From: a virus
Lineage: Duplodnaviria; Caudoviricetes
DNA: 64,000 nt
Direction: 5' to 3' (one strand)
Virus record (IMG/VR): IMGVR_UViG_3300031994_000062
Span: 1-64,000 of that record
Position numbers and translations under genes: made by a program. This document shows positions 5,213 to 33,021 of the stretch, piece after piece (the stretch's first letter is position 1; every line of letters starts with the position of its first letter). The notes under the pieces were generated by a model, which was not told the DNA's origin, did no database searches, and saw only the letters and a list, made by a program, of their open reading frames with translations.

Positions 5213-5227
5213 ATATGTCCTCCTTTC

Positions 5228-5713
5228 TTAACCGATAAGACTAATCATTTCAATGTCAGATAATTCTACTTTCGTGTCATCTGGAAGCTTATCGATTATG
5301 TCTTCTACATTAAGTTCTTTGAAATCATATTCTGATTCTTCTGCAAGAACTTCTCTGATTGATTTATTAATTTCTTCTATTTTCTCCTTATATTCATCCA
5401 TAAACTCAGGCTTTACGGTTCTACCTTCTTCAAGTACAGGGTTCCCATCTTCATCAAGAACGGCATTACCATCTGCATCTCTCTGTGGAATCATATCCTT
5501 GTCAGATTTTTCCTCGCCAAAATATTCATCCTGAAGATCCTTAAGCAACCCCTCACGAAATTCCTCAAACTTCTGAACAGAAGGCTCTAAGAGCTTGATA
5601 TTTGACAAAATATTCCATTGTGCCTTGATTGGCATCGTCTTAATTCTTTCATTTCTAAAGTCGTTAAACCATCTGATAATTGCCTGAGCTTCACTAATCT
5701 TAAAATTCTTCAT
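5228..5713 (-). CDS. Hypothetical acidic protein, possible tail fibre chaperone
   Basis: 161 aa with RBS, between fibre genes. Confidence 0.55.
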   Translation of the reverse strand: MKNFKISEAQAIIRWFNDFRNERIKTMPIKAQWNILSNIKLLEPSVQKFEEFREGLLKDLQDEYFGEEKSDKDMIPQRDADGNAVLDEDGNPVLEEGRTVKPEFMDEYKEKIEEINKSIREVLAEESEYDFKELNVEDIIDKLPDDTKVELSDIEMISLIG

Positions 5714-5739
5714 AATTCATTTCTCCTTTTATTCATTGA

Positions 5740-14563: not shown

Positions 14564-16190
14564 CGTTGTCTTTACATGGTTCGCTACACCATGCTGAGTA
14601 AAACCCACTCATGTTTTCACATGAGACGAGACTATATCTTATCAAATATTATATGTGTAATTCCTTAGTTAAAATTTTCTCTATATTTTGAGATTCCCAA
14701 TATGGGATCCTGATCAGTTTAATATCATTGTTGTAGCAATAATCGTTTTTAATTTTATCATGCAATTTTGTCATCTCGAATGATTCTTCACCATATACCG
14801 GCTCAAAATGTTGTCTTCCGTCGAATTCAATACATGTATTATAGTCGAAAAGATAAAAATCAAAAGGTAAACATCTTTTATCTTTACAACCATCAAATCT
14901 CTTTTCGTTTTCGTATTCAATATTAAATTTCTCCAAGCAGTTTTCAACTAATCTTTCTCCGCGCGTCTTTTTAGAAGAACAATTGTGACAGCGGATTTGG
15001 CCGCTTTGATAATTTGCTAAACTTGCCAAATATACATTTCCGCATTCTCCGCATTTTATTTTTAAATTTATTGTTTGATTATTTTTGTAATCTTCTGGAT
15101 TCAAAAGAATATTCCCGTTCTCACTTTCAATATATCTAATTAATTGCTCTTTGGATAATTTTAATTTTTCTCCTATTGTTTTTTGAAAACATGAAGGACA
15201 TGTAACTTGATTTGAATTTTTATATTTAGAAAACGACACGGTATATATATTTCCACATTTCCCGCACCTTACATTGAGATTTTTATTATTTACATCTGTA
15301 AAATCATCTGGATTCAAAAGAATATTGCCATTAATAGAATTAATATAATCCTCGACAAATTTCTTAGAATATCTTTTAACTTCTGTGCTCTTTTTAATTC
15401 CACAATCATGACACATCCCGTGACTATTGGTAATATTTGATAAAGAAGAAAGAAATTCTTTTCCGCATGAACCACATATTATTCTTAAGTTTTTCACTTT
15501 CATATTAATATAATCATCAGGATTTAAAAGCTTATTATTATTTTTCGATTCTACTATTTTAATTACCTCTTCTTTACTTAAAGCTTTCTTTCCTTTTAGC
15601 TTTTCGCTATTCGGATGAACACCACCGTTTAATTCTTTTATTTTTTTATGAACACATTTTTTACATGCATATTTTTCTTTGTGATTTTTTGTTTGAGATA
15701 AATACTTGTTGTATGGAAGTATTCTTTTTTCTCCACAATAATCACAGATACATTCGATTTTTACATTTGAATCAGGATTTAAATCATCAATATCGACTTC
15801 AAATTCATCAAATCTTCCAGTGTATTCATACCCTTTATTTTTATAATAAGAAATTATTGAACCAGACCATTTTAATTTGATCTTTTGTGGTTTAACTAAT
15901 ATTGTAATCATCTCCTTATATTTCTATCTTTTTGACAAAAAAATAAGACCACCCGAAGGTAGTCACACACATAATATTTGATATTCACCTTTTCAAACCG
16001 CCAATAGCTTGCGGCCCTACTCCCAAAATGGGATAGTCGTTGAAGTTTCTCCTGTTCGGAGCTTACCTGCTGATTACCCAATTCTCATAATTTTCAAACA
16101 TTCACGCTCAAGTTTATTTCATCATCACGTTGTAGTTTATGAGACTCTAAGGGTGTTCCAGCAATTAAATGAATATGCGCAAATAATTTC
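14564..16190 (-). mobile_element. Group I intron (1627 nt) in the tape measure gene, endonuclease in loop L8
   Basis: Core elements AAUUGCUGGAA, AAUCAGCAG, UCAACGACUA and AAGAUAUAGUCU. P7 GACUA/UAGUC, P3 AUAUUCA/UGAAUAU, P1 exon GCGU with IGS GCGC. P8 arms flank the ORF. 5' exon ends in U, intron ends in G, and the join is in frame. Confidence 0.9.
14649..15911 (-). CDS. Intron-encoded homing endonuclease, zinc-ribbon repeats + Vsr/DUF559-like PD-(D/E)XK domain
   Basis: Repeated CxxCG modules, then LPFDFYL...CIEFDGRQH...DKIKNDYC...LIRIPYW. Confidence 0.85.
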   Translation of the reverse strand: MITILVKPQKIKLKWSGSIISYYKNKGYEYTGRFDEFEVDIDDLNPDSNVKIECICDYCGEKRILPYNKYLSQTKNHKEKYACKKCVHKKIKELNGGVHPNSEKLKGKKALSKEEVIKIVESKNNNKLLNPDDYINMKVKNLRIICGSCGKEFLSSLSNITNSHGMCHDCGIKKSTEVKRYSKKFVEDYINSINGNILLNPDDFTDVNNKNLNVRCGKCGNIYTVSFSKYKNSNQVTCPSCFQKTIGEKLKLSKEQLIRYIESENGNILLNPEDYKNNQTINLKIKCGECGNVYLASLANYQSGQIRCHNCSSKKTRGERLVENCLEKFNIEYENEKRFDGCKDKRCLPFDFYLFDYNTCIEFDGRQHFEPVYGEESFEMTKLHDKIKNDYCYNNDIKLIRIPYWESQNIEKILTKELHI

Positions 16191-19100
16191 ACGCCTTAAA
16201 TCAATATTTTCTTGAAGCAGTTCATTCTCACGTTCAAGTTGATCGTAATACAACTCAAGAATTTCACCACGATAATCAGCAATACGCTTTGCTTCCTCGG
16301 AAATTCCGTCCATATATTCATTCTGAAGCTCTATAGCTTTTTCTTGAGTGATGTTACCATTGTCAAGATCTTCCTGAACTTTGTCTAATGCGATTCTATA
16401 ATTACTGATAATCTTATTTGAGTTTTCAATAAGTTCTGTCAGCATTGCCAAATCTGCATAAGTATCATCAGTAAATCCACCATCTTTACCAACAAGATTA
16501 TCTTTATTGATAAATTCTCGGATAGTTTCAAGTTCAGATGTCGTACGAGTCAATGTTTCCAAGAAATCTCTGAAAGGTTTCCAACGGAGTTCTACAATTT
16601 TATCGGAAAGATCTTCGATAGCGTTAGCAGCACTAAATATGCTTTCACTGGCTTGTTTAGCATCTTCGTTCCACTGATTCCACTCCTCGGATCCGATTTC
16701 AAGATTCGCCATTTGTTCTATAGCTTTTTCATAAACTTCCGTTGATTTCTCTATTGCGGCAAAATTAGCATTCAGCTGTTCTTGAAGGGCTGTTTCGTCA
16801 TATCTGAAAATTGCCTTATCTGCCCTATCGCCAAAGTATTTTCCGCTTATACGTTCAGCGTAGTCATTTCTGGTACTAAGACGATCTATAGTATCCTGAA
16901 TTCTCTTAAGCTGATTCTGCAAATTAGTAAAATCAAGACGTACAAGAGTATTCTGAAACTCTTTGAGATCCTTTTTAGCGTCAAATGTTGCACCTCGAAG
17001 ACTAGTTAACTGAGCCTCCATTTCATACCATTGTTGTGTACCTTTTTTAAGTTCACCAGATTTAATTTGTTCAAGGACTTCTGCTTCGTATTTTGATAAA
17101 TTAGATTCAGCATTAGAAACGGCATTTTTCTTAGCCTGCTCTTCTATTGCAAAAGGAGTAGATTGACTGGTGAACAGCTGTCCTCTGGCTTTACCAAGTT
17201 CAACGTAGGATTCAACTTCTGACGCTCTTGCGGAAAATGTTTCGCCGATTTTATCATACCAATTATTAATATTTTCTAATCTCTTTGCGGCATTTTCATA
17301 AAAAGCATCCAGATAAGCATCTTCTGCAACTAAGAAATTATCGTGAGCGGTAACATTAGCGTCAATTGATGCATTATAAGCCGCAACCGCTTTTTTAGTT
17401 TTTGTGCTCCAAGAATCTTTAATTTCTATCTTTTGACGTTTGTCAATAGCATCTTGATATTTCTTCTTATCTTTTTTGTTTATTTTGGAATTCTTAATTA
17501 CATTCTTAGCATTCTTGCTTGAAGACTTAAGATCGGATTGGGTTGTGTTATATGCAGTTTGGCGTTCTCCCATCTGATTCTTTAAGTTGGTAGTTTCCGA
17601 ATTCAGATCTGCGTTCATTTGTCCTATAGCAGTAGTTTTACCGTCTTTGCTATTACGATATACATATTTGGAATTTCTCTCAGAATTTCTCTTAAGGTCT
17701 TCTAATTCTTTATTTAATTTTTCGACGGCTTTGTCAGCTTTAACATTTGGAATGTCTTTTAATTTAGTATAAAGTTCCTGAAGGTTGTCGGTTAAATCGA
17801 TAACAGCTTTAGATGCTGTTTTAGATTTTTGATACCAAGTATCTATATCTTTGATCAATGACATACGTTTTTCGCCGTAACTAGCAATGGTAGATTTTGT
17901 AAACTGACCCTTTTTGTTTTTCTTTATACGACCTTTTTCAAGATCCTCAACGATTTTATTAACCCATTTATTATTTTTATTGTCAATTTTATCGCCCTTT
18001 TTCGCCTTCTTGTTATATACTTCTACGCCTTTTTTGCCGACAGATTTGGCCTTTTTCTTATATCCAGAAGCAGCAGAACTGTTTGCGTTTAATTCTTTTG
18101 TTAAGCTACTTATGGCTTTATTGTAAAAATTCCTTTGAGTTTCGGATCCTTGATTGACTGCCTTTTCAGCTGCAGTTGTCCACTGAGCAGTTAAGTCTTT
18201 AAGATGTTCAAGTCTAATCTCGACCCAATCAAAAAGACTGGAAACCCATTTTTGAAATGCGTCCCATGCTTTATCTTTTTTAGATCCGTTCTTGTTGCCT
18301 TTCTTACCAGACTTCTTACCGCCAGATTTCTTGGAAGTTTTCTTTCCGCCGCCGGAAGATGTGGAAGAACTACTAGAAGAAGATGTTCTATTTAATTTTC
18401 CGCCATTTTTCCCTAAATAAGCCGTTCCGCCAATGTAAGCATAATAATCTTCATCTTCGTCATCATAAAATTCAAAATCGTCATAGTAATAATCTTCATC
18501 GTCCAATGTGGAACCATGAGCAAATGCAGATCCATGCAGATTAGATTTCCCTCTGGTCGAGGTGGAACCGTTGTTTAATAATTCTTCAGTCTGCTTAGAA
18601 TTAAACACAACGGAATGTGCCGGGATATGAGTAAATTCTGGACCATTTTCGCCTACTAGCCACCATCTATTTCCGTTAACAACCATTTCAGGCGCGACTT
18701 CACCAACTAAAGCGTTCTCATCGGATTTAGTCTGCCATTTTTTGGGATAGTTATTAGTGTCAATAGGAGTGTGTTTTAAAGATTTATCTGGAAGACCTGA
18801 GATCCAAGAAGGAGTTCCGGATGCATGGGCGGTGCCGTGAAGATGTTCTGTTTCAGTGCCACCTTTACCATGATTGCCTCTCTCTGTGGAAACTATTGTT
18901 TTCTTATGCGTTACAAGATTTACAGTCTTATCTTTTAACTCTCTCATTTTAGAAACGATAGAACTAATGGCAGATTTCGCTGTTTCTGCGCCATTTGCGG
19001 CAATATTAAAGTGTTTGTTGGGAATATTTTTATTGATAACAGACTGTATTTTGTTTAACGCATCTTTATTGTCTCCTCTAATTAATGCTTTTTTTTCTTC

Positions 19101-22100
19101 AGGAGAAAGAGTATTCCATGCATTAATAACCCAAGTAGCTTTATCTTTACCGTTTAATTCTGCAAATTGCGGAATAGGAGATAAGGAATTCCACAATCCA
19201 ATAATAGCAGTGGCCTGATCTTCGCCAGTAAGAGTAGCAAATTGTTCATCTGCTTCAAGCTGATTCCATGCATCGATTATCGGCGTAGCATTGTCTTCGC
19301 CAATTAATTCGGCAACAATAGTCTGTGCTTGAGGAATTGAAGTAAATTCATTTAATTCAGCTTGTGCCTTGGACAAATCTACCTGCGGAACTATCACAGG
19401 ATTTGCCAATGGTGCCTGTAAAGTCGACTTTTTCGGCTGTGACTGGGTCTCAGTTTTTTTCGGCGTTGTTTCTGTTTTCGTTTCAGTTTTTGAAGAAGTG
19501 CTACTATCTCTTTCCGAATAAGATCTTTCCTTATTTGCTTCTATTTGCTGCTTTTTGTATTCTTTAATAGCTTTAGTTCCGCCTTTATATTTAGAGGCGA
19601 GTTTTTCGACTGTCGTGCCCTGTTTTTTAGCGGCAGCTTCGAGCTTTTTGTATTGTTGCTCTACATCTTTACCAGCATTAAAGTTTTCAGTAAAAGCTTT
19701 AGCAAGTTTCTTATTATTTTTAGCTTGCTGTTCTGCGGAACCGTTGTTATATTTAGATGTTGTCTTATCATCTTTACTGGTTTTACCGGTAGTCTCATCG
19801 ATAGTCCCCTGAAGCTCATCTTTAACATTTTGCTTAAATTCCGGAAGTTTCTCAGCGAGAATTTGATCCATATTACCTTCAATAAACGTAGACCAATCCA
19901 TACTTTCGCCACTAGCTAACAATTGTTGGTAGGACAATTGCAATTCTTCGATAGCTTGTTTTTCTTGAAGAAGTTCTTCTCGTCTGGCTTCTGTGGTACT
20001 TGCTAATTTTAATTCAGAATTAATGTCATTAATCTTATCAAATGAAGCACCATATCCTCTGTTATTACTTGCCGTAATACCGGTTTGTTTTTCTAACAGA
20101 TCTCGTCCTTCTTCTAGTTTCATTATTTGAGAAGAAGCATTTTCTTTAGACCAGCCATTATTTAAAGCATCTTGTTGAAGCTGATTTAAATCATATAATA
20201 CTTGAGACAAATCATATTCAAACTTAATTTTAACAATAGCTTCATCATCTAATTCGCCAAGGTCTTCTTGATATTTTTCGTACTCCTGATCAAATCCTTG
20301 AAGTAAAAGACCTAATCTATCCTTTGCTTCACCGGGCTTCATAGATTCATAAAGCTGTTGAACGTTTTCAAGATTTTGACGATATTCGTCTAATTTCTGA
20401 CCGGACCACTCAATTCCTGTAAACTCAAAACCGTAATCTTTAAGTCTATTAAGTATGGTCTCAGTAGCCTGAACACTAAGCCCCATTTTTTCTGCGGCTT
20501 CAGCTGTGGTTTCGAAGGTATTTTTGGTTTCTCCGGTCTCTTTATTAACCCATTTCATAACTCCCTTTTCGACAGCGTCGTCACGGAAATTGATCATGCT
20601 ATCCATCGGATTTTCGGAATCAAAATATCTCTTGATTTTCTTTTGGGCTTTCTTCCAAGCTTCAATATAGGCATCAGAGTTGAAACCTTCGGTTACTTTA
20701 ATCTGTTTCGGACTCATAAACTGAGCAAGAGTTTGGAAATCGTCAGTGCCTACAAGTCCCTTTTTGTAAAGATCTTTACCGTTCTTTAGCCATCCGGCCA
20801 TAGATTCCCAATTGGCCCCAGCATTTTCGGATTCTTGGGCAGCTTTGACACCTTCGAAAGATCCATCTACTTCAAACACTTCTTTAATCTTAGCCTTGGT
20901 TTCATCTGCATTTACTTTGAGATCGTCGAAATATGAATTTAAAGATTCAACAGCAGATATAGTACCACCAGCACCATCGGCAATATCATAAAGGTTTATA
21001 TCTTCAACAGTATAACCAATTTCTGCAAGGGCTTCAGACGCAGATTTTCCATCGTTGACGGCATCGGTAAGATATTGTTTAAGCTCTTGGCGAGACTTAT
21101 TTGTGGCTTCGTCTGTCGAAGTAAAGGCAGATTCAATATTCTTACGCATTAAATCAGTAGGATCCTTTGTATCGGAAAGCGCGTTGCTAGTTTGTTGAAT
21201 GGCAGATTCAATCTGATGATATGCGTCGGCAGCTTTATCGTCAGATAAATCAAGGGTGTCTTTATATTTAGCCATTTCTGTACTTCCTTTGGTCAACGCA
21301 TCGGTAATATCATCCACCCGTTTTTTGGCATTGTCGTAACGCTTTTGAACTTCAGGTCGAATTTTTCCTTTCTTTTCATCTTCGTCATAAGCCTTTTGTG
21401 CTTCATCTAATTCTTCCTGAGCTTCTTTTAAGGCTTTTAAATTGTTTAATTGACCTTCTACTAATTTACTCTTACCGTAGACCTTTTTAGTGGGATCATA
21501 AACACCTGCTGGAAGTCCTGATTTGGTGTAGTCAACAGTTCCTTTGTCGGAATTTAAAGCTTTCAATGCAGAATCGCTGGCACGTTTTTTCTCGGAATCC
21601 ACAAGTTCTTGTTGGATATTTCTCATGTCCTCAAGTTCACGCTTTTGTGCTTCAAGATTTGCGAGTTCTGCTTTGTCTGTAAATGTTAATTTATCTTTAG
21701 AATTAATTTCATCAATTCTAGAATTGATATCTTGGATTTTCTTATCTGTTTTGTCGAGTTCTGTAAGATCCTTGCTGTATTTTTCATTGTCTTCGTCAAA
21801 CTTTTCAGATTTACGATCATAATCCTTTTCATACCATTTTGCTACACTTATAGCCGCTAATAATGCAGCAATTCCGCCAATTGCAAATTTCCACTTAAAC
21901 AAGAAACTTCCTATTTTTTTTACAGTTTCTAATAAACGACTGAAACCAGTATTTGCTGCTGCGGTTCCTGCCGCGACTCCTCCGGCGGCGGCTTCAATAC
22001 CTTCCATCTGTAAAGCTGCAGCTCCAGTAGTTCCGGCAAATTCCTCCAAATCATCTGCGGCGTCAGCCAATTTTACAACTCCAGAATTAGCATTGCTACC

Positions 22101-25100
22101 AGTAATAGATCCTAAAAGTACTCCATTGTTTGCGGCAGTAAAAGCGCTTTGCTTGGCATTTAATTCAGAAGTGAAACTTGCCTCGGCTGCAGCTCCTGCG
22201 GCGTCGGCATATCCGGCAGCTAATCTTTCTGCATTTGTAGCTGCCACTCCCGTGGCGGTCGCCACTTCTTCAGCTTCTAAAGCAGCAGCTGCTGTAGAAC
22301 CAGCTAACAATTCTGTTTCAGAACTTAGCGCTTCGGCTGCTGTTGCCGCCGTAGCTTCGGCTCCAGATAATACTTCAGCTTCTCCGGCCGCTGTGCCTGT
22401 CGCTGCCGCAGTCTCGGTTTGTGCCCCGGCCGCTAATGTTGCTTCTGATGCTACCGTTCCTTCAGTACCAGCCAGCATTGCCGCCTCTGCCGTTGTTCCG
22501 GCCATAGCTTCTTGAACCGCTTGTCCAGACATAGCTGTTTCATTCATAGCTGTTCCACTTAAAGTTGCAGCTGTAGCCATTCTTTCCGTACTTGCTGCTG
22601 CTTCTGCCGTTCGTGCAGATAATTCTTTCCAACCAGTTTCATTAATTAGATTTTCAACATTTTTCTGATTGAGGTTATGATCAAGAGCAAAAGTATTTAC
22701 TTCATCTAAAGTATCGAATTTATTATTCTGTAGTTTACTTCTTAAAGTCTGTATTGCGAAATCGTTTGCTCCTGCATTAGCTATATACGGAATAGCGCTT
22801 GTAAGACCTACTAATCCACCAGCGCCAGCTAAAGTAGGAAATAATCCGATAGTATCAATGATATTGTTTAATAGCTCAAGAAACTCTGTTGCTCCTTCTA
22901 TTAATCCTTTAAACATATCAGACGTAAACACACTAGTTTGTAATTCCGATATACGTGTTTGCAATTGCGATATTTTACCATCAATAGAATCTAAATACTT
23001 TTCGTTTTCTTCCATAGCCGATCCTTCGGCGTTTTGAACCTGTTCGTATGCAGATCTAAGTATTTCAGGATTCTGAAGAATACTACCGGCAATATTAGCC
23101 CTTGTTTTTCCGGCAATTAATTCAAGCAATCCGTTGGCTTTATTTGTACCGAACTTTTTATCACTTTCTATAATTTCATCATAAATATCGGCAATTTCTT
23201 GCAATACCTGATATGTTGATTTATACGTACCATCGTCAGACAACATACTTACGCCTTTATAATCATTTGACCCAACGGCAGTAAACTGTCTAAGTTGCTC
23301 GTCAATTTTACTCTTTGTTTGTACGACAAAATCCGTAGTGTCTTCTCCGATATCTTCGAGTTCTTTTTTAGCCGCTTCTGTACCTGCCATTCTTAATGAA
23401 ATAGTTCTTAATCCAGCACCGGTTTTAGATGCATTTTGGGTAATAGCATTGCCAGCTGTAATTAACGCAATCGATTCATTGATATCATTTCCGGCTGTCG
23501 ATAATGCAGCAGCAGAGTCTTTTAAGCCAGTTGCCAATTGATCGGTTGAGATACTGAAGTTATTACCAATAAGATTTAATTTATCGACAATATCAATCTT
23601 CTCTAAATCATCATAAGCGGCACTCATAGATATAAGGCTTTCTGTGGCCTCATCTATTGAAGAAAATTCAGATACATTCATCAATATATTCGCAGACTCT
23701 GCAGATTTTTGTGCTTCATCAAAGCTTTCACCAAGTCTCAAGAAATCAGCTGTACTCTGTTGAAGCTGTAAAGCTGTAGTACCAATATTAGATGCTAAAT
23801 CAAAACTAACTTCTTGGAAATTACGAAGACTTTGTACAGACTCATCCGATACTTTTCTCATCTCTGTAAGAGCTGTGTCGAATTGTCTTACTTCATTAGC
23901 CGTATCTTTTATTACACCTATGATTCTATAAAATGATGCGAACGACGCTAAATATGCACCTAAGCTTCCCATACGCTGTTTCCAGGTATCAAAGAAACTC
24001 ATCCCAGTTTTACCCGCAGCCGTTAAATTACCACGCAAAACATTTAATTGATTCGATAATTCATTAACATCTTTTACAGAATTTTTAGTATTTAAATCAC
24101 CGATTTGAGCGCCTAGATTATTAAATTGATCTTTGAACGCACCTGATCTTGCTGCTTTAGAATTAAATTCTTTAATAGTAGCGAATCTTGTTTGTAAAGC
24201 AGATATTGATTTCTCACTTGCAGGAGTGAACTCTCCAGATTTAACTCTATTTTCAAGTTCTGTATACATATTAAGCAATTCTTGAATATCTGCTTTTTGC
24301 TTTTCATCATTAGGATCAAATGTGGTATTATTAAGATTATTAATAGCTTCGCGAATCTTTTCAACTTCAGCATAATAGGTATCAAACATACCTTTTTTGG
24401 CATTAAGATTATTAAGCTGATCAACTTGTGTTTTCATAAAATCTTGATATGCCAATTGAGGCATAGATTCAATTTGTGCTTTAAATTGTCTGTCGGCCGC
24501 AGTAGCTTGATCACCGGCTTCTACAATTCTTTGATACGCCTGTACAATATTATCAAGAGCGCTAGTTTGAACCGGAGTCATTTCTTTACCAGATAACTGA
24601 GCAGCGTAACCAGCTCTCGCATTCTTTAAATCCTCGTTCTGTTGCTTGGTTAACTGTACATCTTTAGTAACAGGATTAAGAGTTTGAGCATATTCTGCAA
24701 AATTTCCGCGTTCAACAGATTGAATAGCCGCATCAAGATCCTTGACTTTTACAGTAGTCTGTGTAACCTTTCCATCGAGTTCATTAAAAAATGATAATAC
24801 AGCCGTATTACCATCAAATTTAACACCTTCAAAGGTGCCTAGTCCTTCTATAATTTTGTTTTTAGAGAAATAATCACGAATAGAACTTTGGTTAAATAAC
24901 TTTTCGTATTCAGCTTGCTGATCGGCTCTTTGTTTCTCCGCGTCGCGTGCCGCCTTCGCCTGTTCCTGTTCTTGCTGTCTGAGTAATTTCGCATCGGCTT
25001 GTTTTTGCGCATTCTCAGAAATATTAGACGCTTTTTGCATATCAGATAATTCTGATTTTGTTAATTTAATCAACTCTAATAATTTCTGAAGATCTGCAAT

Positions 25101-28100
25101 TTGTTTTTCGTCACTCCAATCAATTGTCATTCCTTGTAATTGATCAACATAACCTTTGAGATCTTTAAGTTTATCTGCAAATCCCGCGATTTTTGAAGAA
25201 TCTACGTCCGTAAACTTCTGGAGATCAGTACGCTCTTTTCCCACAGTGCTTCTAAGAGCAGCATTAGAAACTCGTTCAACAGAATTTACCAATTCTCTGT
25301 CGCCAGTGTTCTCTGGATTTAAATACGACCTGGTTTGTTTTGCAGTTCCGTAAGCTTCGCGAATTTGTTTCATTACGTCTGTCTGAACACCAGATACTTC
25401 CTGTCCTTTAAGTATCGCATCAAGGCCAGCTTTGTAATCAGCCATAGTTTCTTTAAAGTTTGCTTTTGATAACTCAGAAGCCGTTTTATTAATAGCTGCT
25501 TCAGACTTTAATTGCTGTTGTTCTTGATCTTTACGTTGCTGTTCTTTAAGTTTGTCTTCTTCCTTAATTCTTTGCCCAGCTCTTTGAATCTGATATTTTT
25601 GCATTTCCTGATCTTCTTTAATCAAACGTTGTCTTTCAGCTTCTTTCGCAGCGGCTTCTTCTCTAACGATTCTTTGAGCTTCCTTTGCTTCTGCATCGTT
25701 TTGACGTTCTTTATCTTTGATAGCTTGTTCTTGTAAGCGTTTATTTTCCTTTTGCTGTCTTTCTTGTGCTTTTTGCTGTCTTTCTTGTGCTTTTTCGCGT
25801 TCGCGCTCTTGTCTTTCAGCTTCTTTGACTGCATCTTTATCGATTTGAGTATATGAATTTTTAAAATCATCTTTATTAAATGTACCTTTTTTTAATTTAT
25901 CTGATACTTCAACAAGATCTTCAAACCTTACTATAGTCTCAGCCAAACCTTCATTGAAGGCTACAACAGCGTCGCCATCTTCGCCGAAGGAAATTAATTT
26001 TTTAAAATCTCCAAGACCTACATCGTTAAATAAATCGTTGTATTGACTAAGATCGTAATTCTCAAGAAATACATCTTTTGTCATTCCACGATATTTATTA
26101 CCACGGCCTTCACCTTCTCCGCGACCTTTTTTATTCGGGTCCTCAGGCTTACCACCGCCAGCGGGTTTATTCTCAGTTTTTTCTGATTCATCATTTACAC
26201 CTTTGACGGTTAGTTCGACTTCTTTCCCGGTTAGGGATGACTGAATAGAAGAGATAAAAGCATCCGCGTCGGTTTCAAGAGGTTTAAAACCTATTTGAAC
26301 TTTCTGTTCTCCGATTTCACTCTGAATCTTTGAAACAAAATCTGCTCCAGCACCTTCAATAGGTTCAACGTTTAAATGAATTGATTGACCTTCCGCTTCG
26401 GATTGTACCTGGGAAATTAGAGAAGAAGATGATCCTTCGGCTGGTTTAAAGGTTACAGGAATTTCAAAATTTCCCTTACCACTTACAGAATTAGCATTAT
26501 CGCTTACAGACTTAATACTATTCTGAGCACGATTATTAAGGATATCGTTAATATCGACTTCTTCAATAGTTCCTTTTTTGTAAGCTTTATAGCCAGATAT
26601 ATTATAATTATCATCATAATTAGGAAGAATTTCTATATTCCTCATGATGCCCGACTTTAATATATTAAGCGTTTTTAAGTCACTGTCTCTAGGCACCCAA
26701 TGCGAATCTATAAAATCTTTAGTATCTTTAAATCCAAGATTCAATCCGGATTTTTTCATAGCCCTATCCAATGTTTCTTTATCGCCGCTTAACAATAATG
26801 CTTGTTGCATATACATTTGAGCTTCTTGCGTTGAAAATAAATCTGGATAAGATCCGGAAGAGATCTGTTCGTTATGATATGCTCTTATTTTTTCAATACA
26901 TTCATCAAGAGTTACGTTAAATCTTTGAGCATTACTTAAATCTTTAGCTGTAAAAATTTGATCTTGTTGTTTAAGACCATTTAATATTTCAGTAATATTT
27001 TTTCCTCTTGCAGATCCAAGTTTCAATTTTTGAATAGAGTCCCAGGCATTATCTATTGCGAATTGATCTTTTAACTCTGACTCTGCTACTCCAAAAGATT
27101 TATAAATTCCTTTTAATCTCTGATAAGTTATTGCCAGAGATTCCTTTTGAGATTTATCAATATCTTTCGGATTCCAATATGGAACTTCTGTTGCTCCATA
27201 CGTTTTTTTTATTAAATCATTAATACTTAAATTATATGGTTCAATCTTTTTTTTCAAAGTATCGGAAATACCAGGTTTGATATTTTCAGCAATAACATCT
27301 TGAATTTCATTTGAAATTTTCGAAGGTGTAGCACCGGAAGATCCACTACCCATCTTGATATTATTAGGATCAACCTCGACGCCAATCTTAACATTCTGAC
27401 CTTCTAAAGCATTCTGAATCTTACCAACAAATCCGCCAACATCATCTGCTTTAGGCTCAATAGGAATATCAAGTGGTTTATCAACATGTATGGCTTCAGA
27501 AATTTTACTTTGAAGTTCCGTAACTTTACCTTGGGCGTCAGAAAGCTTGCTCACTGCTTCTGTTAATGATTCGACGAATTTATTAATTTCTTCAGTGTTG
27601 AAACCGCCACTTCCACCAGCGCCTTCTTTGTCGGCTTCTGCTGCTAATTTTGCAGCTTCTGCTTCAGCTTTTTTTGCAGCCATACGATCTTCGTTGACTT
27701 TAGCAGTATCATAATCTCTTTGTAATCTTTGTCTTTGTTGACGCGCCGCCTCAAGTTTGCCTATTGGAGTATTCTCGTCTCCAAGAGATTTCATCGTTTG
27801 AAGATTACCGCTTATAACATCAACATTTTTCATTGTTGTTAATTTTCTTACAATATCATAATACTGTTGCAAATTAGATACTAATTTGGTTATCTGTTCA
27901 ACGTTGCCTTTTGCGTTTTTACTGTCATATTTAATCTCAATTGGCTTATTGAATTGAATGTCGCTCAATTTTCCGCCAAGCTTGGTATATGTATCCAAAT
28001 TCTTAAAGAACTTGTCATCAAACATTAAATCTCGATTGGTAGCTGCGGCTTCGGCGGCTTCTGCGGCCTTTTTGCTTGTAAGATATTTATAAGATTTTTC

Positions 28101-28748
28101 ATAATCTTTAGCTACCTTACCAAGACCACCTTTTTTACTATCTAAGAGTTGCGCATCTAAATTGGTTATTTCCTTCATAATATCTTCTGAAGGAGCCAAT
28201 TTGATCCCAGATATATCAATTAAAGTATCTCGAATTTGAGTTAAAGTAGTTTTTAATTCTTCGAAAGATTGCACATCAATCTTGGTGTCGACCATTGCTG
28301 CCATAGCTTTAGTAACCGCATCAACATTATCGTTAATGTTCCTTAATTCGTCTCCGGTTACTCTTAACCCCATAATATCTTTGCCTTCATCCGTTTTCCC
28401 TATTTGTTGCGTAACTTGAAGTAAATTATTTCTTAAAAATTGAACCCTATCTGCCGCCTTTTGCAGACTTGTTTGCATATCATCGAGTTCTTGAACCTGA
28501 CCATTTATAACTCCTTTGCCAGATCCAAATACTTTCTTAAAGTCGAGTCCTTTAAGATTTTTATTCATACCAATCAAATAATTATCTAATTCATTGAACA
28601 ACCCTTGTATTTGCTTTTTATCTATGCCAATATCAATTGTATACTGTTTGCCTTCGATAGCTTCCTTAGTTTCTCTTTCAGCTTCCTTAGTATCTGCATG
28701 GACTTTGGCAGTGACGTCCATTTCAATACTTTTTTTTAAATCTGCCAT
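16191..28748 (-). CDS. Tape measure protein, exon 1 (4186 aa)
   Basis: TP901-type core (FDTALTEMRKV...IVDKLNLIGNNFSIS...GAGLRTISLRMAG), long coiled-coils, position before Dit. The last 17 codons of the listed ORF are intron sequence. Confidence 0.92.
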
Positions 28749-28769: not shown

Positions 28770-29162
28770 TTAAAAATCATATGCTAGGAAAAATTCCTCA
28801 ATTAATTCCCAGGGGCTTGGTTGCATTTGTGGAATATGTTTTTTTGGTCTTCCCCATGCTAATGGTCCACCATGATAACCAACACCAAATGATCCTGCAA
28901 AAACCGCATCGTCACTTCTATGCGATTTTCCAAAAAATTCTGGAGAATAGGTAATTCTAACAGTATATCCATTCTCTATTGGCTCTATTTCAGTTTTCCA
29001 CATATTTTGCATACCAAATGTCCGGTCATATATCATAGGTTCATAATCACCATAAAAAGCATTAATTGCATTTGAACTTTGGCGATCAAAATCTTCGGCA
29101 ACTTGAATAGCATATGGCAATAACAACTCATGTATTTCAGAATCCGTAAATATATCAGCCAT
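28770..29162 (-). CDS. Hypothetical tail-region protein
   Basis: 130 aa with a YxPxxYxRT motif, immediately upstream of TMP. Confidence 0.6.
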   Translation of the reverse strand: MADIFTDSEIHELLLPYAIQVAEDFDRQSSNAINAFYGDYEPMIYDRTFGMQNMWKTEIEPIENGYTVRITYSPEFFGKSHRSDDAVFAGSFGVGYHGGPLAWGRPKKHIPQMQPSPWELIEEFFLAYDF

Positions 29163-29709
29163 TTAAATCAGTCCCAAGATTTTCGAATATAGATACTATT
29201 TCGTTCATTTTTCCGGGATCTTTGAGTATATCTGAAATATCTCCAAGGCTACGTTTGATGTCGATAATTATTCCAGATAAATAAGCCTCAAAGCTACCTT
29301 TAGATTTTTCAAAATTCGACACTAACATAGCATTTACACTAGACAATTCTTTGATTTCATACTCTCCAATAATTTCACAAATAACACCAACTAATCCTGA
29401 TTCAGTTAAAGCATCATAACACTCAAAATTCGCGCCGACTTCTTTTCCATCAACATTTTTTTTATCAACCGTTAAATCCGTATAAAGCGCGATCATCGCA
29501 AGAGTATAATTTATTTTAGATGTCATCATATCAATATACTTAATTCCGGTTTCAGATATAGACACAGCGTTGTCTAGCATCATCTGAAGAATAAGCCGTT
29601 TTTCTAAAACGGGACAATACTTTCTTTTAATATGAGACTGGATCATTTGCTCCCTAGCTTTATCTGAATTCATATTTTTATATTTCTTACAAAATTCTAA
29701 AATTGTCAT
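29155..29709 (-). CDS. Putative tail assembly chaperone (paralog B)
   Basis: 184 aa, similar to the neighbouring gene, between tail tube and TMP. Confidence 0.5.
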   Translation of the reverse strand: MTILEFCKKYKNMNSDKAREQMIQSHIKRKYCPVLEKRLILQMMLDNAVSISETGIKYIDMMTSKINYTLAMIALYTDLTVDKKNVDGKEVGANFECYDALTESGLVGVICEIIGEYEIKELSSVNAMLVSNFEKSKGSFEAYLSGIIIDIKRSLGDISDILKDPGKMNEIVSIFENLGTDLNG

Positions 29710-29710
29710 C

Positions 29711-30118
29711 CTAATTCCTCCTTGCTAAAGCAGCCTGACTGCGTTCATTTTGATATAAATCGTTTAATTTGCACTGCATAATTTCGTCAAATCGCGCGAT
29801 TTCCGATTCATCAATATATCCTAATAGAAAACTAACAGCATCACGCATTTCTAATTCATCAAATTCTTCTGTTATATTATTATAATCAATATCTACATTC
29901 ATATAGGCATTGATCAATGTCATTCTATAAAGCAAATTTCTATATGCCGAATTAATATTAAAATCGCCATCTTTATCATATGTACTATCATAAATAATAG
30001 CTTCGCATATTTCACATTTTTTATCGAATGGAATATAATCAACAACTTCCAACTCAATATCGTCAAATCCGGTATCTATATATTTCTCATATTGATCTAT
30101 AAATTCCTGTGTAGTCAT
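29711..30118 (-). CDS. Putative tail assembly chaperone (paralog A)
   Basis: 135 aa, acidic and helical. Shares the YxPxxxK...LxxIxxY..xD pattern with 29155..29709. Confidence 0.5.
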   Translation of the reverse strand: MTTQEFIDQYEKYIDTGFDDIELEVVDYIPFDKKCEICEAIIYDSTYDKDGDFNINSAYRNLLYRMTLINAYMNVDIDYNNITEEFDELEMRDAVSFLLGYIDESEIARFDEIMQCKLNDLYQNERSQAALARRN

Positions 30119-30225
30119 TTTGGTTCCTCCTTGTTATCATTTATGTAAATAACCACTTCAGTCCTTGGATGTTCTTTATCAACATCGGTTTTTAACGTTA
30201 GTGATTTTAAGTGCTTTCCGTCGTC
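30115..30225 (-). pseudogene. Displaced duplicate 3' end of rusA
   Basis: Frame reads DDGKHLKSLTLKTDVDKEHPRTEVVIYINDNKEEPK*, aligning with the RusA end DDYKHYKRMIMSIDYDKENPRTEILIKIKEQ*. Its stop overlaps the next ATG (ATGA). Confidence 0.8.
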
Positions 30226-31241
30226 AAATCTCTAATGCATACCATTTTCTTTTCTTGATTTGAATATTCCCAATTATCAATAAACGGACTAATCTCATCT
30301 CTTAATTCATTGTAAAAATCTTCATCTATAAGAATTAATTTTGAAAATTCTTCTGGATATTGATCTTTAAATAGCTGTAATCTTATTTTACTTTTTTCAT
30401 CCATCCAACCTTTAACTTCAATCCATTTATCAAATTCTGGCAAATAAAAATCGGGCTGGTAACTAGCCACCCCGTTTACAGATTCGTCAAAATAAAATCT
30501 TTTAAATTCGTATTTCCATTCTATATAATTATAATTCAATAATCTCGCTATATTTGATTCCCATGAACTCCTAAAAAATTGATTGTTTAAATCTTTTCGC
30601 TTCCCACTTTTTGTACGTGAATAAGAATTTTCAGAAGTAGAAGTTATGATATTATTTTTAATTTTGGTTTCCAAACTTTTTCTCGCTCTAATACTTTTCT
30701 CTTCTTTTGACATATTTGCGGCAAGTTCAATATGTGACTTTGACATCTTTCTTTTAGTTTCATCGGTATGATGTTTACCCAACATACCTCTTGGATGAGT
30801 TTCTGAATTGCCCATAGTCTTTTTTGCAGTTTCTGATAATTTTTTACGTACAACATTTTTAAAATAATCACTATTATAATAATCTGATAATTTTTCTTTA
30901 TAATTTTTAAGTTTTTCTTCTGTCATTGGACGAGAATTATTTGAAATACCTATCTTGTTTGCATATCTACAAATAGATGTTTTTTGTCTGTTTATTTTTT
31001 TCGATAATACATCAAGATCTATAGCATCTGGATTTTTCATATAATAATCTTTTATAATTTGTTTTTCTATATCTGTAAATGGCTTAAACTTACCACTCTG
31101 TATACCTAATGCGGTTTTCTTCCCTCGGATACTACCTTCAGATCTATTGAGCAACTCACTTAGTTCTTTTACAGATAATTCTACGTTATCTTTAAGTATT
31201 TGCACCTCGTCTTGAGACCAAAATCCTGTTTTATAAGCCAT
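30207..31241 (-). CDS. Free-standing homing endonuclease-like protein (HTH + NUMOD3 + PD-(D/E)XK)
   Basis: HPRGMLGKHHTDETKRKMS (NUMOD3-like), FRSSWE, YQPDFYLP...IEVKGW. Likely start at ATG 31241. Confidence 0.8.
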   Translation of the reverse strand: MAYKTGFWSQDEVQILKDNVELSVKELSELLNRSEGSIRGKKTALGIQSGKFKPFTDIEKQIIKDYYMKNPDAIDLDVLSKKINRQKTSICRYANKIGISNNSRPMTEEKLKNYKEKLSDYYNSDYFKNVVRKKLSETAKKTMGNSETHPRGMLGKHHTDETKRKMSKSHIELAANMSKEEKSIRARKSLETKIKNNIITSTSENSYSRTKSGKRKDLNNQFFRSSWESNIARLLNYNYIEWKYEFKRFYFDESVNGVASYQPDFYLPEFDKWIEVKGWMDEKSKIRLQLFKDQYPEEFSKLILIDEDFYNELRDEISPFIDNWEYSNQEKKMVCIRDLTTEST

Positions 31242-31246
31242 ATATA

Positions 31247-31687
31247 TCACTGCTCCTTTATTTTTATTAATATTTCTGTTCGCGGATTTTCTTTGTCGTA
31301 ATCAATAGACATAATCATCCGTTTGTAGTGCTTGTAATCATCGTCAACAATAAATCCAGATTCTACGAATCCATCATCTATAAACTTTGATATAAAATTT
31401 TGTATATCAGCACGCTTCTTTGTCGGAAAATAAATTGTTTCCTCTATTTCAAAATTATCCAACATCATATTCGCGTACCCTAATTTATCTATCCACCAAA
31501 TTACGAATTCTTTCCACTTCTGTTTCAACGCATTCATCTGTGGTCTCGGCATAATCATCCATTCATTAATACTTGGATGCCACGGTTTTTCTATCGGAGC
31601 CTTGCGGGCTTTTGGATGTTTTTTAAAATAATATTTGTTATATTCATCAAGCAAATCTTGATCTAAAACTAGCTTTATTTCTTGCAT
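31247..31687 (-). CDS. rusA: RusA-family Holliday junction resolvase
   Basis: YFPTKKRADIQNF...KFIDDGFVESGFIVDDD...YDKENPRTEI. Confidence 0.8.
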   Translation of the reverse strand: MQEIKLVLDQDLLDEYNKYYFKKHPKARKAPIEKPWHPSINEWMIMPRPQMNALKQKWKEFVIWWIDKLGYANMMLDNFEIEETIYFPTKKRADIQNFISKFIDDGFVESGFIVDDDYKHYKRMIMSIDYDKENPRTEILIKIKEQ

Positions 31688-32070
31688 CGCGATATATCCT
31701 CCATATACCCTTGTATATCAACAGAAGAGGAGATAGTTTCATTGATAAGCTTATATGTAATCTCAAGCGGTATTACAACAAGATCTAATTCTACATCACC
31801 GGTATCTCGATGATAATCATTGATTATACATTTAGCATCAAATGCCGCCATACATTTAGTTGCTTCAATAATATTCTTAGTAAACATATATTGATGTCTA
31901 CCCGGTACAACCATAAGATATTGTCCGTTATCAACAACTGCCATCACATAGCGTTTTACGCGCTTCTCCAGATATTTTTGCGGCATGATCCCGATAGGAG
32001 CATCTTCATAGATTGGCAATTCTGCTCTTAATCCACGTTTTCTTTCTTTTCTGTTATTTCCTTTTGCCAT
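31675..32070 (-). CDS. Hypothetical protein
   Basis: 131 aa ORF in the operon. Confidence 0.6.
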   Translation of the reverse strand: MAKGNNRKERKRGLRAELPIYEDAPIGIMPQKYLEKRVKRYVMAVVDNGQYLMVVPGRHQYMFTKNIIEATKCMAAFDAKCIINDYHRDTGDVELDLVVIPLEITYKLINETISSSVDIQGYMEDISRCKK

Positions 32071-32259
32071 TTATATTTCCTCCACTTCAAATCCGATCCA
32101 TACTTCATTGGTTCTATTACAAACACGAGCAGCTTCAGCGTAATCATCAGTTTTAAATAATTTCATTCCTGGGTTAATACCGCCATATTCACGAACATAA
32201 AATCGGTTATATTTCAAGCTCTGATAAACTGCTCTATCTCCATTAATCACAATGTACAT
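32071..32259 (-). CDS. Hypothetical protein
   Basis: 62 aa with a strong RBS. Confidence 0.6.
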   Translation of the reverse strand: MYIVINGDRAVYQSLKYNRFYVREYGGINPGMKLFKTDDYAEAARVCNRTNEVWIGFEVEEI

Positions 32260-32270
32260 TCCTTTTCCTC

Positions 32271-32492
32271 CTAATTTAATTCATGATTTATCCATGCTTT
32301 ATATAGATCTTGGGTTTCGTCGCGCAAGAAAATATAAACGATGATATCGTTACCATTCTTATCGCAGCTTGCATAAAGATCTATTGGATATACTTTATTT
32401 TTTATATACATCTTTGCCTGAAGTTGATTTACGATCCGGCAAATTTCTCGTTCATTATAATCTCTAGGTTTTAAATTTGTTTCGATATTCAT
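32271..32492 (-). CDS. Small hypothetical protein (DUF5659-like)
   Basis: 73 aa, IVNQLQAKMYIKN...IVYIFLRDETQDLYKAW. Family assignment is from memory. Confidence 0.55.
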   Translation of the reverse strand: MNIETNLKPRDYNEREICRIVNQLQAKMYIKNKVYPIDLYASCDKNGNDIIVYIFLRDETQDLYKAWINHELN

Positions 32493-32516
32493 ATATCATC
32501 CTTTTCCTCCTTAACC

Positions 32517-32572
32517 AAAAAAGGGGGAATACAGCCACCGTCGTTAAAGAACAGCAACCATATCCCCCCTTA
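32517..32572 (-). promoter_or_regulatory. Terminator/attenuator-like hairpin enclosing two GGT(T/G)GCTGT repeats
   Basis: G6/C5 stem plus U-tract. Plus-strand repeats acagccacc (32531) and acagcaacc (32551). Confidence 0.55.
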
Positions 32573-32630
32573 AGGTATATAAAATTTGCAAATCTTATAT
32601 CATATATTAAAAATCACTGTTCAATAAATA

Positions 32631-32993
32631 CTAATTACGTTTTCTCCCGGTTTTTCTTTTAAGTTGTTCTGCGGGTTTTTCTACTTTAGGTTCGTCAACC
32701 TTTTCTTCTTTAATTTCAATCTTTTCTTCTGTCTTCATAATTTCGTCAATTAATTTAATAAAATCAATACGGATTTTTTCTTTATTAGTTAAATCACAAG
32801 CATTCAACATTTTTTGCGCGTCTTCATGTGATATTGTTTTCTGAGCATAGGCCACTACTGTATTGAATATAGTGCGGCAATTTTCTGAACAATAAGTATT
32901 CTTCCAAGACGGTTGATGTTGTTCTTCTCGGCAGTCTGAGCAATACTTATATTCTTTTCCACATAAAATACATTTTCTGTTATATCTACTCAC
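32631..32993 (-). CDS. Hypothetical Cys-rich (Zn-binding) protein
   Basis: CILCG, CSDC and CSENC motifs. Confidence 0.65.
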   Translation of the reverse strand: MSRYNRKCILCGKEYKYCSDCREEQHQPSWKNTYCSENCRTIFNTVVAYAQKTISHEDAQKMLNACDLTNKEKIRIDFIKLIDEIMKTEEKIEIKEEKVDEPKVEKPAEQLKRKTGRKRN

Positions 32994-33021
32994 TTTATTT
33001 CCTCCTTAAAAATTTTATATC

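Follow-up and report, generated by a model that had tools for sequence, protein, structure and literature searches.

Intronless homing has been described for the free-standing endonucleases encoded by T-even phages, whose genes lie outside introns and inteins beside an essential gene and are inherited together with flanking donor DNA via double-strand-break repair, with co-conversion and marker exclusion (PMC2988022). In ICP1-like and other phages, islands of homing endonuclease genes (HEG islands) have been reported, in which nuclease genes mark the boundaries of exchange and essential genes are the cargo, and in which small fragments of cargo genes beside the nucleases were proposed to be remnants or recombination substrates (bioRxiv 10.1101/2023.03.23.533998). 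In fungal mitochondria, free-standing endonuclease genes are accompanied by partial duplicates of atp6, cox1 or atp9 (PMC7487136). The locus analyzed here belongs to a virus of the Caudoviricetes (IMG/VR virus record IMGVR_UViG_3300031994_000062); the 64,000 nucleotides (nt) from position 1 to 64,000 of that record are called the window. It contains a gene for a RusA-like junction resolvase (rusA), a free-standing nuclease gene directly downstream, and, behind the nuclease, a second 3' end of rusA.

The favored explanation, to which we assign a probability of about 0.72, is that the nuclease is a free-standing homing-type endonuclease, and that part of a donor rusA together with the nuclease gene overwrote the resident rusA after break repair, leaving the old end behind as a stub. 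The live rusA of the window is a mosaic, empty-site alleles exist in relatives, and the same anatomy recurs in other phages. The nuclease occupies the resolvase slot in a group of large gut and rumen siphoviruses. We infer that rusA is first broken by this enzyme and that the imported allele is spared.

Layout of the locus and mosaic structure of rusA

The order of the genes on the minus strand is the 131-codon gene, the rusA-like gene, the nuclease gene, an uncalled stretch (30119-30206) and the 135-codon gene. Relatives are designated by locus (L) and protein (P) numbers. The features of the locus are the following:

31675-32070, minus strand: 131-codon gene, from the list of open reading frames (ORFs)
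31247-31687, minus strand: RusA-like gene of 146 codons (live rusA), from the ORF list
31505-31687, minus strand: native (resident) 5' part of live rusA, codons 1-61, with 61/61 amino acids identical to P0004
31247-31504, minus strand: putatively imported part of live rusA, codons 62-146 plus stop, including the replacement tail; identity to P0004 falls here
31253-31258, minus strand: AAGGAG ribosome-binding site of the nuclease within the final rusA codons, read from the sequence, 11 nt before the ATG at 31241
30207-31241, minus strand: free-standing nuclease gene, 344 codons plus stop, of the PHROG 9019/190/29037 nuclease families
30927-31238, minus strand: two predicted helix-turn-helix (HTH) DNA-binding modules, nuclease residues ~2-105, from an AlphaFold2 model
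30267-30629, minus strand: PD-(D/E)XK catalytic domain, nuclease residues ~205-325, from an invariant motif, a profile match and fold matches
30226-30245, minus strand: right-hand junction, ~20 nt that match neither the donor-type nuclease end nor rusA, from a three-way alignment of the window, L025 and L108
30115-30225, minus strand: orphan rusA 3' end, resident codons ~116-152 plus stop, from a hidden Markov model (HMM; E 4.4e-9) and collinear with L108 and L026
29711-30118, minus strand: downstream 135-codon gene of unknown function, from the ORF list; its native translation start region lies inside the orphan

A preliminary description of this DNA, made from the letters alone, had listed the end of rusA, the nuclease, the second C-terminus and the ATGA coupling to the next gene, and all four were found again at the minus-strand positions it had given. 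The live rusA protein matched PHROG 34 ("RusA-like") with an E-value of 1.4e-15, and a profile of 20 family members aligned with Escherichia coli RusA (1q8r) over nearly the whole chain, including the catalytic motifs (E 1.7e-6). The Pfam collection, in which RusA is PF05866, did not match the RusA-like protein of the window even at E 10; a precomputed PF05866 match exists for some homologues that are 60-65% identical to it.

The second RusA C-terminus can be read at 30118-30231 in another frame, and its homologous part, of 36 codons, begins at 30225. The 2369 peptides from all six frames of the window were scored with an HMM built from 19 family members, the window's own protein being excluded. 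The live gene obtained E 1e-77 and the stub E 4.4e-9 (profile positions 116-145/146), while the next best peptide had an E-value of 0.81. Judged by these scores, the stub is not a chance similarity, and its earlier identification as a rusA C-terminus can be retained. The TGA of the orphan (30115-30117) overlaps the ATG of the gene at 29711-30118 in the tetranucleotide ATGA, and an AAGGAGG motif lies in the last orphan codons, before the ATG of the 135-codon gene. The retention of the stub thus allows the next gene to keep its ribosome-binding site and the ATGA overlap. The orphan lacks a start codon of its own and is therefore probably untranslated.

The two tails of the window differ considerably. 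Over codons 116-141, the live and the orphan tail are identical at 43/78 DNA positions, the orphan and the tail of the nuclease-free locus L108 at 53/78, and the live tail and that of the nuclease-bearing locus L025 at 54/78. Because each is closer to a different phage lineage than to the other, the two tails are best read as alleles of different lineages and not as a local duplication. Relatives of the RusA protein number at least 417 in a search of 5.8 billion proteins, and 120 homologues were used to define motif and tail classes. Among these 120, the live tail belongs to a rare class, and the stub sequence after the DDD motif represents the commonest class.

The foreign part of the live gene extends beyond the tail. 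In comparison with the nuclease-free allele P0004, all 61 amino acids encoded by codons 1-61 are identical, the identity decreases to 33/54 for codons 62-115, and it is 14/31 in the tail. Codons 62-115 are much closer to the nuclease-linked allele P0002 (47/54 identical), which is 80% identical overall. Because the identity to P0004 is complete through codon 61 and only 33/54 beyond, the imported segment appears to start at about codon 62; on this comparison it consists of rusA codons ~62-146 (~85 codons) and the nuclease, not just of the last 26 codons. The earlier proposal that the element had brought a replacement tail therefore stands insofar as the nuclease and a rusA segment replace the resident sequence, and it has to be corrected with respect to the length of that segment. 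Codons 31-60 have 89-98% DNA identity to L026, and are the likely left crossover site.

The imported part also contains an unusual catalytic motif. The catalytic aspartates of E. coli RusA are D70, D72 and D91; the window protein has retained D94 and D115/D116, and the equivalent of D72 is Q96. The motif of the live gene is D-I-Q-N (31400-31411, codons 93-96), compared to D-x-D-N in 117 of the 120 homologues, and a Q at the position aligned with D72 is found exclusively in the window, in the nuclease-linked P0002 and in the nuclease-free P0003. From the literature on RusA mutagenesis, we take the aspartate equivalent to D72 to be required for catalysis. The Q-type allele may thus be impaired, inactive or altered, or it may have a variant active site.

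An intron does not account for this organization. The Rfam scan of 29000-33000 (E up to 1) revealed no intron or ribozyme, in agreement with the earlier remark that an intron core is missing. A group I intron with an internal endonuclease ORF was rejected, because no Rfam core is present in that region and because a complete live rusA ORF lies upstream of the nuclease. The nuclease gene is a separate cistron that has a ribosome-binding site to itself and belongs to no intron or intein. Its ORF is open from a GTG (30207-31250), and the ATG start (30207-31241) is more likely; the JGI gene call on the identical contig L028, which also gives 344 amino acids, agrees with the ATG. The stop codon (30207-30209) falls about 10 codons inside the orphan stub in a different frame. 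The gene is single-copy in the 85-kb virus record.

Regarding the surroundings, the 4203-codon ORF two genes downstream (16137-28748) encodes a tape-measure protein (PF10145 on the matching Logan contig), and neighboring genes in relatives match the SPbeta-type tail families YomU, YomW and YomO, which suggests that the window phage is an SPbeta-like large siphovirus. Pfam contained no family for any of eight neighboring proteins, and a promoter and terminator scan yielded nothing above chance. Against 50,697 phage records, blastn with the 3.1-kb region gave no match, and tblastn with RusA gave only matches of 27-35%. The IMG/VR search with the 135-amino-acid product of the downstream gene detected no relatives by pattern.

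Relatives with and without the nuclease

The preliminary description had predicted that relatives lacking the nuclease should end with the downstream type of tail, and this turned out to be the case for P0004, for L108 (which carries P0009) and for the majority of the 120 RusA homologues, with coupling to the next gene. P0004, from a 999-nt Logan contig of SRR33263728, ends like the stub to the last residues and has a 4-nt overlap with the 135-codon gene; it is the predicted empty-site allele. DNA resembling P0004 was searched for in the JGI metagenomes, and the best match was just 59% identical. In a DNA comparison of the window with L108, homology extends from 32083 to 31446, is interrupted by a gap, resumes at 30205 and is then collinear through the rusA 3' end and the next gene. 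Comparison with L026 yielded two high-scoring segment pairs that overlap by 41 nt on the single L026 tail, which means that the window holds that segment twice, the signature of a duplicated end. Homologues of the 135-codon gene directly follow an intact rusA in L026, L108 and the P0004 contig, and the nuclease is absent from P0004, L108, L026 and L109.

The donor side is represented by L025, the locus that carries P0002. Its nuclease homologue starts 6 nt after rusA and is frameshifted, and the ORF runs into the start of the next gene without a stub. When the window, L025 and L108 are aligned three ways, similarity to L025 stops at ~30246 and similarity to the rusA tail of L108 sets in at 30225, with ~20 nt of filler in between. 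L025/P0002 represents the donor type and not the donor itself: L025 was rejected as a recent donor, since its DNA is 70-90% identical all along and contains no tract of near-identity.

L026, with P0003, has the donor-type allele class and lacks the nuclease. It is the single nuclease-free relative with the upstream type of tail, an observation that had been named beforehand as one that would speak against the proposal, and it can be explained as a member of the donor lineage. The presence of the donor-type allele without a nuclease implies that the replacement allele pre-existed in a lineage and was not remodeled in place. The idea that the tail had diverged at its present site has therefore to be given up, because the allele class exists both in L025 with the nuclease and in L026 without it. 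A loss of the nuclease from L026 by recombination between the two tails was also considered, but the sequence that would be informative is neither long nor conserved enough for a decision.

The arrangement is not restricted to the window. A nuclease homologue directly follows rusA in four of 24 IMG/VR rusA loci. A profile search identified 29 loci with full-length nuclease homologues (39-53% identity); 25 of these have an intact resolvase gene directly upstream of the nuclease, and in L043 and L045 a rusA tail behind the nuclease is all that is present. The upstream partners are of four kinds, i.e., the window-type RusA, the Pfam RusA (PF05866), DUF1064 (L042/L043) and RecU (L047). A dead resolvase tail follows the nuclease in 8-9 different arrangements:

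Window: separate stub in another frame
L010, L012, L043: tail fused in frame to the nuclease
L047: separate stub in another frame
L048, L049: Pfam-RusA-type tail; the live gene of L049 is of the window type
L023/L024: dead tail
L056/L057: dead tail

A second resolvase tail was found at none of the nuclease-free loci examined. The clearest comparison is that of L010 with the nuclease-free L004/L005: the identity is 93-95% in the backbones, 95% over the first 20-28 codons of rusA and 86-88% in the 59-nt orphan, and the rusA interior and the nuclease cannot be aligned. L012 and L003 exhibit the same pattern, with the rusA interior and the nuclease replaced. In L023, a 1545-nt segment with a Pfam RusA and the nuclease has taken the place of 147 nt of resident rusA sequence (codons ~60-108); what is left of the window-type rusA is an N-terminal stub of 59 codons and a C-terminal stub of 38 codons (L023/L024 3998-5830; also L140 and L143). 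The imported Pfam-type RusA in L023/L024, L140 and L143 has a Cys-rich C-terminal extension. The nucleases of L048 and L049 are 69% identical and carry different resolvase cargo.

Decayed copies of the nuclease were also found, namely, frameshifts in L025 (513-1543) and L056 (898-1856; L056/57) and a truncation in L127 (924-1304). Such decay is expected of a selfish gene after fixation, and sequencing errors may be involved in short contigs. L141 (647-1397) has the same N-terminal rusA stub as L023/L024, followed by a Pfam RusA, and neither a nuclease nor a C-terminal stub is present in the 2.4 kb downstream; it may represent the state after nuclease loss. Thirteen loci of the L029 type have a tidy rusA-nuclease pair without an orphan. 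Distant family members occur in unrelated contexts (L061 2397-3882, L069 2081-3936), beside small HNH proteins and not beside resolvases; they have an extra N-terminal region, and the one in L069 precedes a gene resembling that of the terminase small subunit.

Six of the relatives (L003, L004, L005, L010, L011 and L012; IMG/VR contigs of 72-217 kb) read TAG as sense. In those phages, rusA and the nuclease gene have in-frame TAGs at conserved positions, so that intact ORFs require the translation of TAG, probably as Q; in the window, the genetic code is the standard one. L004 has a segment of ~3.3 kb (4435-7775) between rusA and the downstream gene that is absent from its 95%-identical relative L010 (at 5555), a second indel at the same junction.

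The nuclease, the proposed exchange and competing explanations

The residues P263 D264 ... E275 K277 of the nuclease (P-D ... E-x-K) are invariant in 19 homologues, and a profile match to T7 endonuclease I (1m0d) across the catalytic motif is marginal (E 0.0034). In the AlphaFold2 model (mean predicted local distance difference test score, pLDDT, of 82), residues 2-47 resemble the DNA-binding domain of GcrA (Z 7.3, root-mean-square deviation (rmsd) 1.5, 44 aligned residues) and residues 50-98 resemble an HTH of the Tc3/Myb/homeodomain kind (Z 6.9); a helical linker connects the HTH modules to the C-terminal domain. The fold of the latter was matched by TnsA (Z 7.2), the catalytic domain of I-Bth0305I (Z 6.1) and Vsr (Z 5.7), as well as by Bax1 and RAP, the matches within the PD-(D/E)XK superfamily spanning middling Z values of 5.7-7.8 (VIA-align). 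Foldseek with the whole model returned nothing at E < 0.001. By its predicted core fold and its D ... (D/E)-x-K motif, the nuclease belongs to the PD-(D/E)XK superfamily, as had been proposed from the letters alone, and the invariant motif, the T7 endonuclease I profile match and the fold matches agree with this. A stretch with a NUMOD3-like pattern (G-K-H-H...K-x-S) follows the NUMOD3 match described below and lies in a low-confidence part of the model. Model and sequence together describe a modular enzyme of the kind seen among homing enzymes. The PHROG database labels the families of the nuclease as "Holliday junction resolvase", and PHROG 190 takes in both the nuclease and DUF1064 proteins; profile-profile comparison between the nuclease and DUF1064 was not significant.

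The exchange may have proceeded as follows. A phage of the donor lineage (P0002/L025 type), with the nuclease gene tidily between rusA and the next gene, would have infected a cell together with a phage that had the common rusA allele (P0004 type). The donor nuclease would have cut the recipient rusA somewhere in codons ~60-116, the ends would have been resected, and donor DNA would have been copied during repair. The left exchange would have taken place in the near-identical stretch up to codon 61. The right end would have been joined imprecisely just past the nuclease, at resident codon 116, because homology beyond the nuclease is poor (the next gene is ~68% identical). As a result, donor codons 62-146 and the nuclease would have replaced resident codons 62-115, and resident codons 116-152 would have been left as the stub. 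The cut is probably situated in codons ~62-108 or at the edges of this interval, since it is lost in common by the window, L010, L012 and L023; it includes the DxDN catalytic motif. Co-conversion is evident from the mosaic breakpoint at codon 61/62 and from the replacement of the rusA interior together with the nuclease in L010, L012 and L023, and the sporadic presence of the gene and the empty-site alleles are likewise as expected for a free-standing homing endonuclease. Nuclease-linked alleles are most unlike the consensus at residues 116-130, a difference that is confounded by lineage. No target site can be named on this basis, because the nuclease-free L011 shares part of the L010/L012 signature and because the window orphan has kept the common sequence.

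Several observations weigh against intronless homing at this locus. The orphan retains the common-type sequence after the DDD motif, and a target located there would stay cuttable. The right junctions lie at codons ~109, 116 and 127 and the left junctions at ~21-28, 60 and 61, and thus not at one site. The donor-type relative L025 is too distant to be a recent donor, and none was found. P0004 was compared as a protein, so that the left breakpoint is known only at the protein level. The Pfam match to NUMOD3 (PF07460) is restricted to residues 136-146, with E 0.17 and 12.3 bits versus a cut-off of 20.4. The near-constant position after a resolvase could equally mean a functional link, and the similarity of the catalytic domain to a junction resolvase (T7 endonuclease I) and the PHROG label point in the same direction.

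Such a functional link is the core of an alternative that we regard as unlikely, i.e., ordinary module shuffling. In this view the nuclease would work alongside phage junction resolvases as a constant partner, e.g., as a second branch-processing enzyme, and modules of resolvase and partner would be swapped by the same general recombination to which phage genomes owe their mosaicism, the nuclease being passive in the exchange. A resolvase sequence adjoins the nuclease in 27 of the 29 full-length loci, in 25 of them as an intact gene, and the 13 tidy, orphan-free loci of the L029 type as well as the breadth of PHROG 190 would suit such a partnership, as would the T7 endonuclease I-like core. However, a fixed partner should not be missing from most relatives with the same rusA, its partners would not be expected to comprise four unrelated folds, and several copies of its gene should not be frameshifted. 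In 8-9 arrangements an orphan tail adjoins the nuclease gene, and none of the loci examined has such a tail without it; distant family members live in other contexts, and a structure-specific enzyme would not need multiple sequence-reading HTH modules. Still less probable is a take-over, according to which the RusA of the Q allele is catalytically dead, the PD-(D/E)XK protein is the working resolvase, and a non-orthologous displacement is under way. The confinement of the Q to the window, P0002 and P0003 among 120 homologues and again the T7 endonuclease I-like core would be in accord with this, but the nuclease-free L026 (P0003) has the same Q allele with no other resolvase in view, L010, L012 and L049 carry the nuclease together with an intact DxDN, and the live rusA ORF of the window has been kept intact. 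Highly improbable is a third alternative, in which the rusA 3' end was first duplicated locally in tandem and an unrelated gene was inserted between the copies later. It would explain two homologous tails 1.1 kb apart in direct orientation. However, these are just 55% identical at the DNA level, and their nearest counterparts belong to different phage lineages; the foreign part of the live gene begins at codon 62 and takes in more than the tail; and in L049 and L023 the orphans beside the nuclease come from another resolvase family.

Under intronless homing, the locus exemplifies the rewriting of an essential phage gene by a selfish nuclease with no intron involved: part of the gene is overwritten by a foreign allele, and the old end stays behind as a stub that still drives the translation of the next gene. 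A nuclease that travels with four unrelated resolvases would also explain in concrete terms the long-noted patchwork of analogous resolvases among phage genomes. One step further, it can be proposed that this is a homing-nuclease family dedicated to the phage resolvase slot, which disables the resident resolvase and brings any of four unrelated folds (two RusA types, DUF1064 and RecU); this proposal is tentative, and we consider the odds to be slightly against it. If it is true, the nuclease would be a direct driver of non-orthologous gene displacement, and it may have been built by joining a resolvase-like catalytic domain to HTH modules that read sequence. The enzyme family, with its tandem HTH modules and T7-endonuclease-I-like core, is uncharacterized and would represent a new homing endonuclease scaffold if it is site-specific. 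In annotation, a short ORF without explanation or a C-terminal extension behind a nuclease of this kind should be taken as a gene remnant.

Comparison with known systems

Intronless homing itself and cargo-gene fragments beside nucleases are already known. The opinion expressed in the preliminary description, that such a strategy is seldom noted in phages, has to be corrected insofar as fragments of genes next to homing endonuclease genes of phages were reported earlier (bioRxiv 10.1101/2023.03.23.533998). Novel features are the family to which the enzyme belongs, the association of this family with the resolvase slot and with four cargo types, and the recurrent, well-documented orphan tails for which empty-site and donor-type alleles are available. 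Compared to the HEG islands, the window type has a different nuclease family, is located in a junction-resolvase slot and has a single nuclease instead of a flanking pair. In addition, the cargo stems from four non-homologous resolvase families, and several phages have the old tail joined in frame to the nuclease.

The free-standing endonucleases that T-even phages encode resemble the window nuclease in that their intronless and intein-less genes lie beside an essential gene, and the inheritance with flanking donor DNA is as proposed here. Their cut site can be distant from the nuclease gene. However, the T-even enzymes are of the GIY-YIG or HNH type, whereas the window enzyme is of the PD-(D/E)XK type. 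The T2/T4 conversions are clean, in contrast to the imprecise right-hand join and the dead gene end in the window. Furthermore, cleavage activity has been shown for the Seg enzymes, and the window nuclease is known here from its sequence and a model.

The fungal mitochondrial cases have the same architecture, that is, a live gene with a foreign 3' part, an endonuclease gene, and the original 3' end as a pseudogene. A hybrid atp6 gene of Allomyces was reportedly described by Paquin et al. in 1994. The fungal endonucleases are of the LAGLIDADG or GIY-YIG type, they are organellar, and their ORF is sometimes fused to the upstream gene, whereas the window nuclease is a separate cistron with its own ribosome-binding site.

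Concerning the enzyme, the closest counterparts in design are the PD-(D/E)XK-type homing endonucleases I-Bth0305I and I-Ssp6803I, which combine a restriction-endonuclease-like core with a separate DNA-binding region, as does the window nuclease. The catalytic domain of I-Bth0305I is one of its fold matches (Z 6.1, rmsd 3.5, 83 aligned residues), and no significant sequence relation to I-Bth0305I or I-Ssp6803I was found. Both are intron-encoded, and the active site of I-Bth0305I is of the EDxHD type, in contrast to the classical D...E-x-K of the window nuclease. The best sequence-profile match to the catalytic core is T7 endonuclease I, the junction resolvase encoded by gene 3, with the catalytic Asp, Glu and Lys aligned. 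However, T7 endonuclease I is a domain-swapped dimer of 149 amino acids without HTH modules that recognizes structure and not sequence, whereas the window nuclease is predicted to precede a similar core with two HTH modules.

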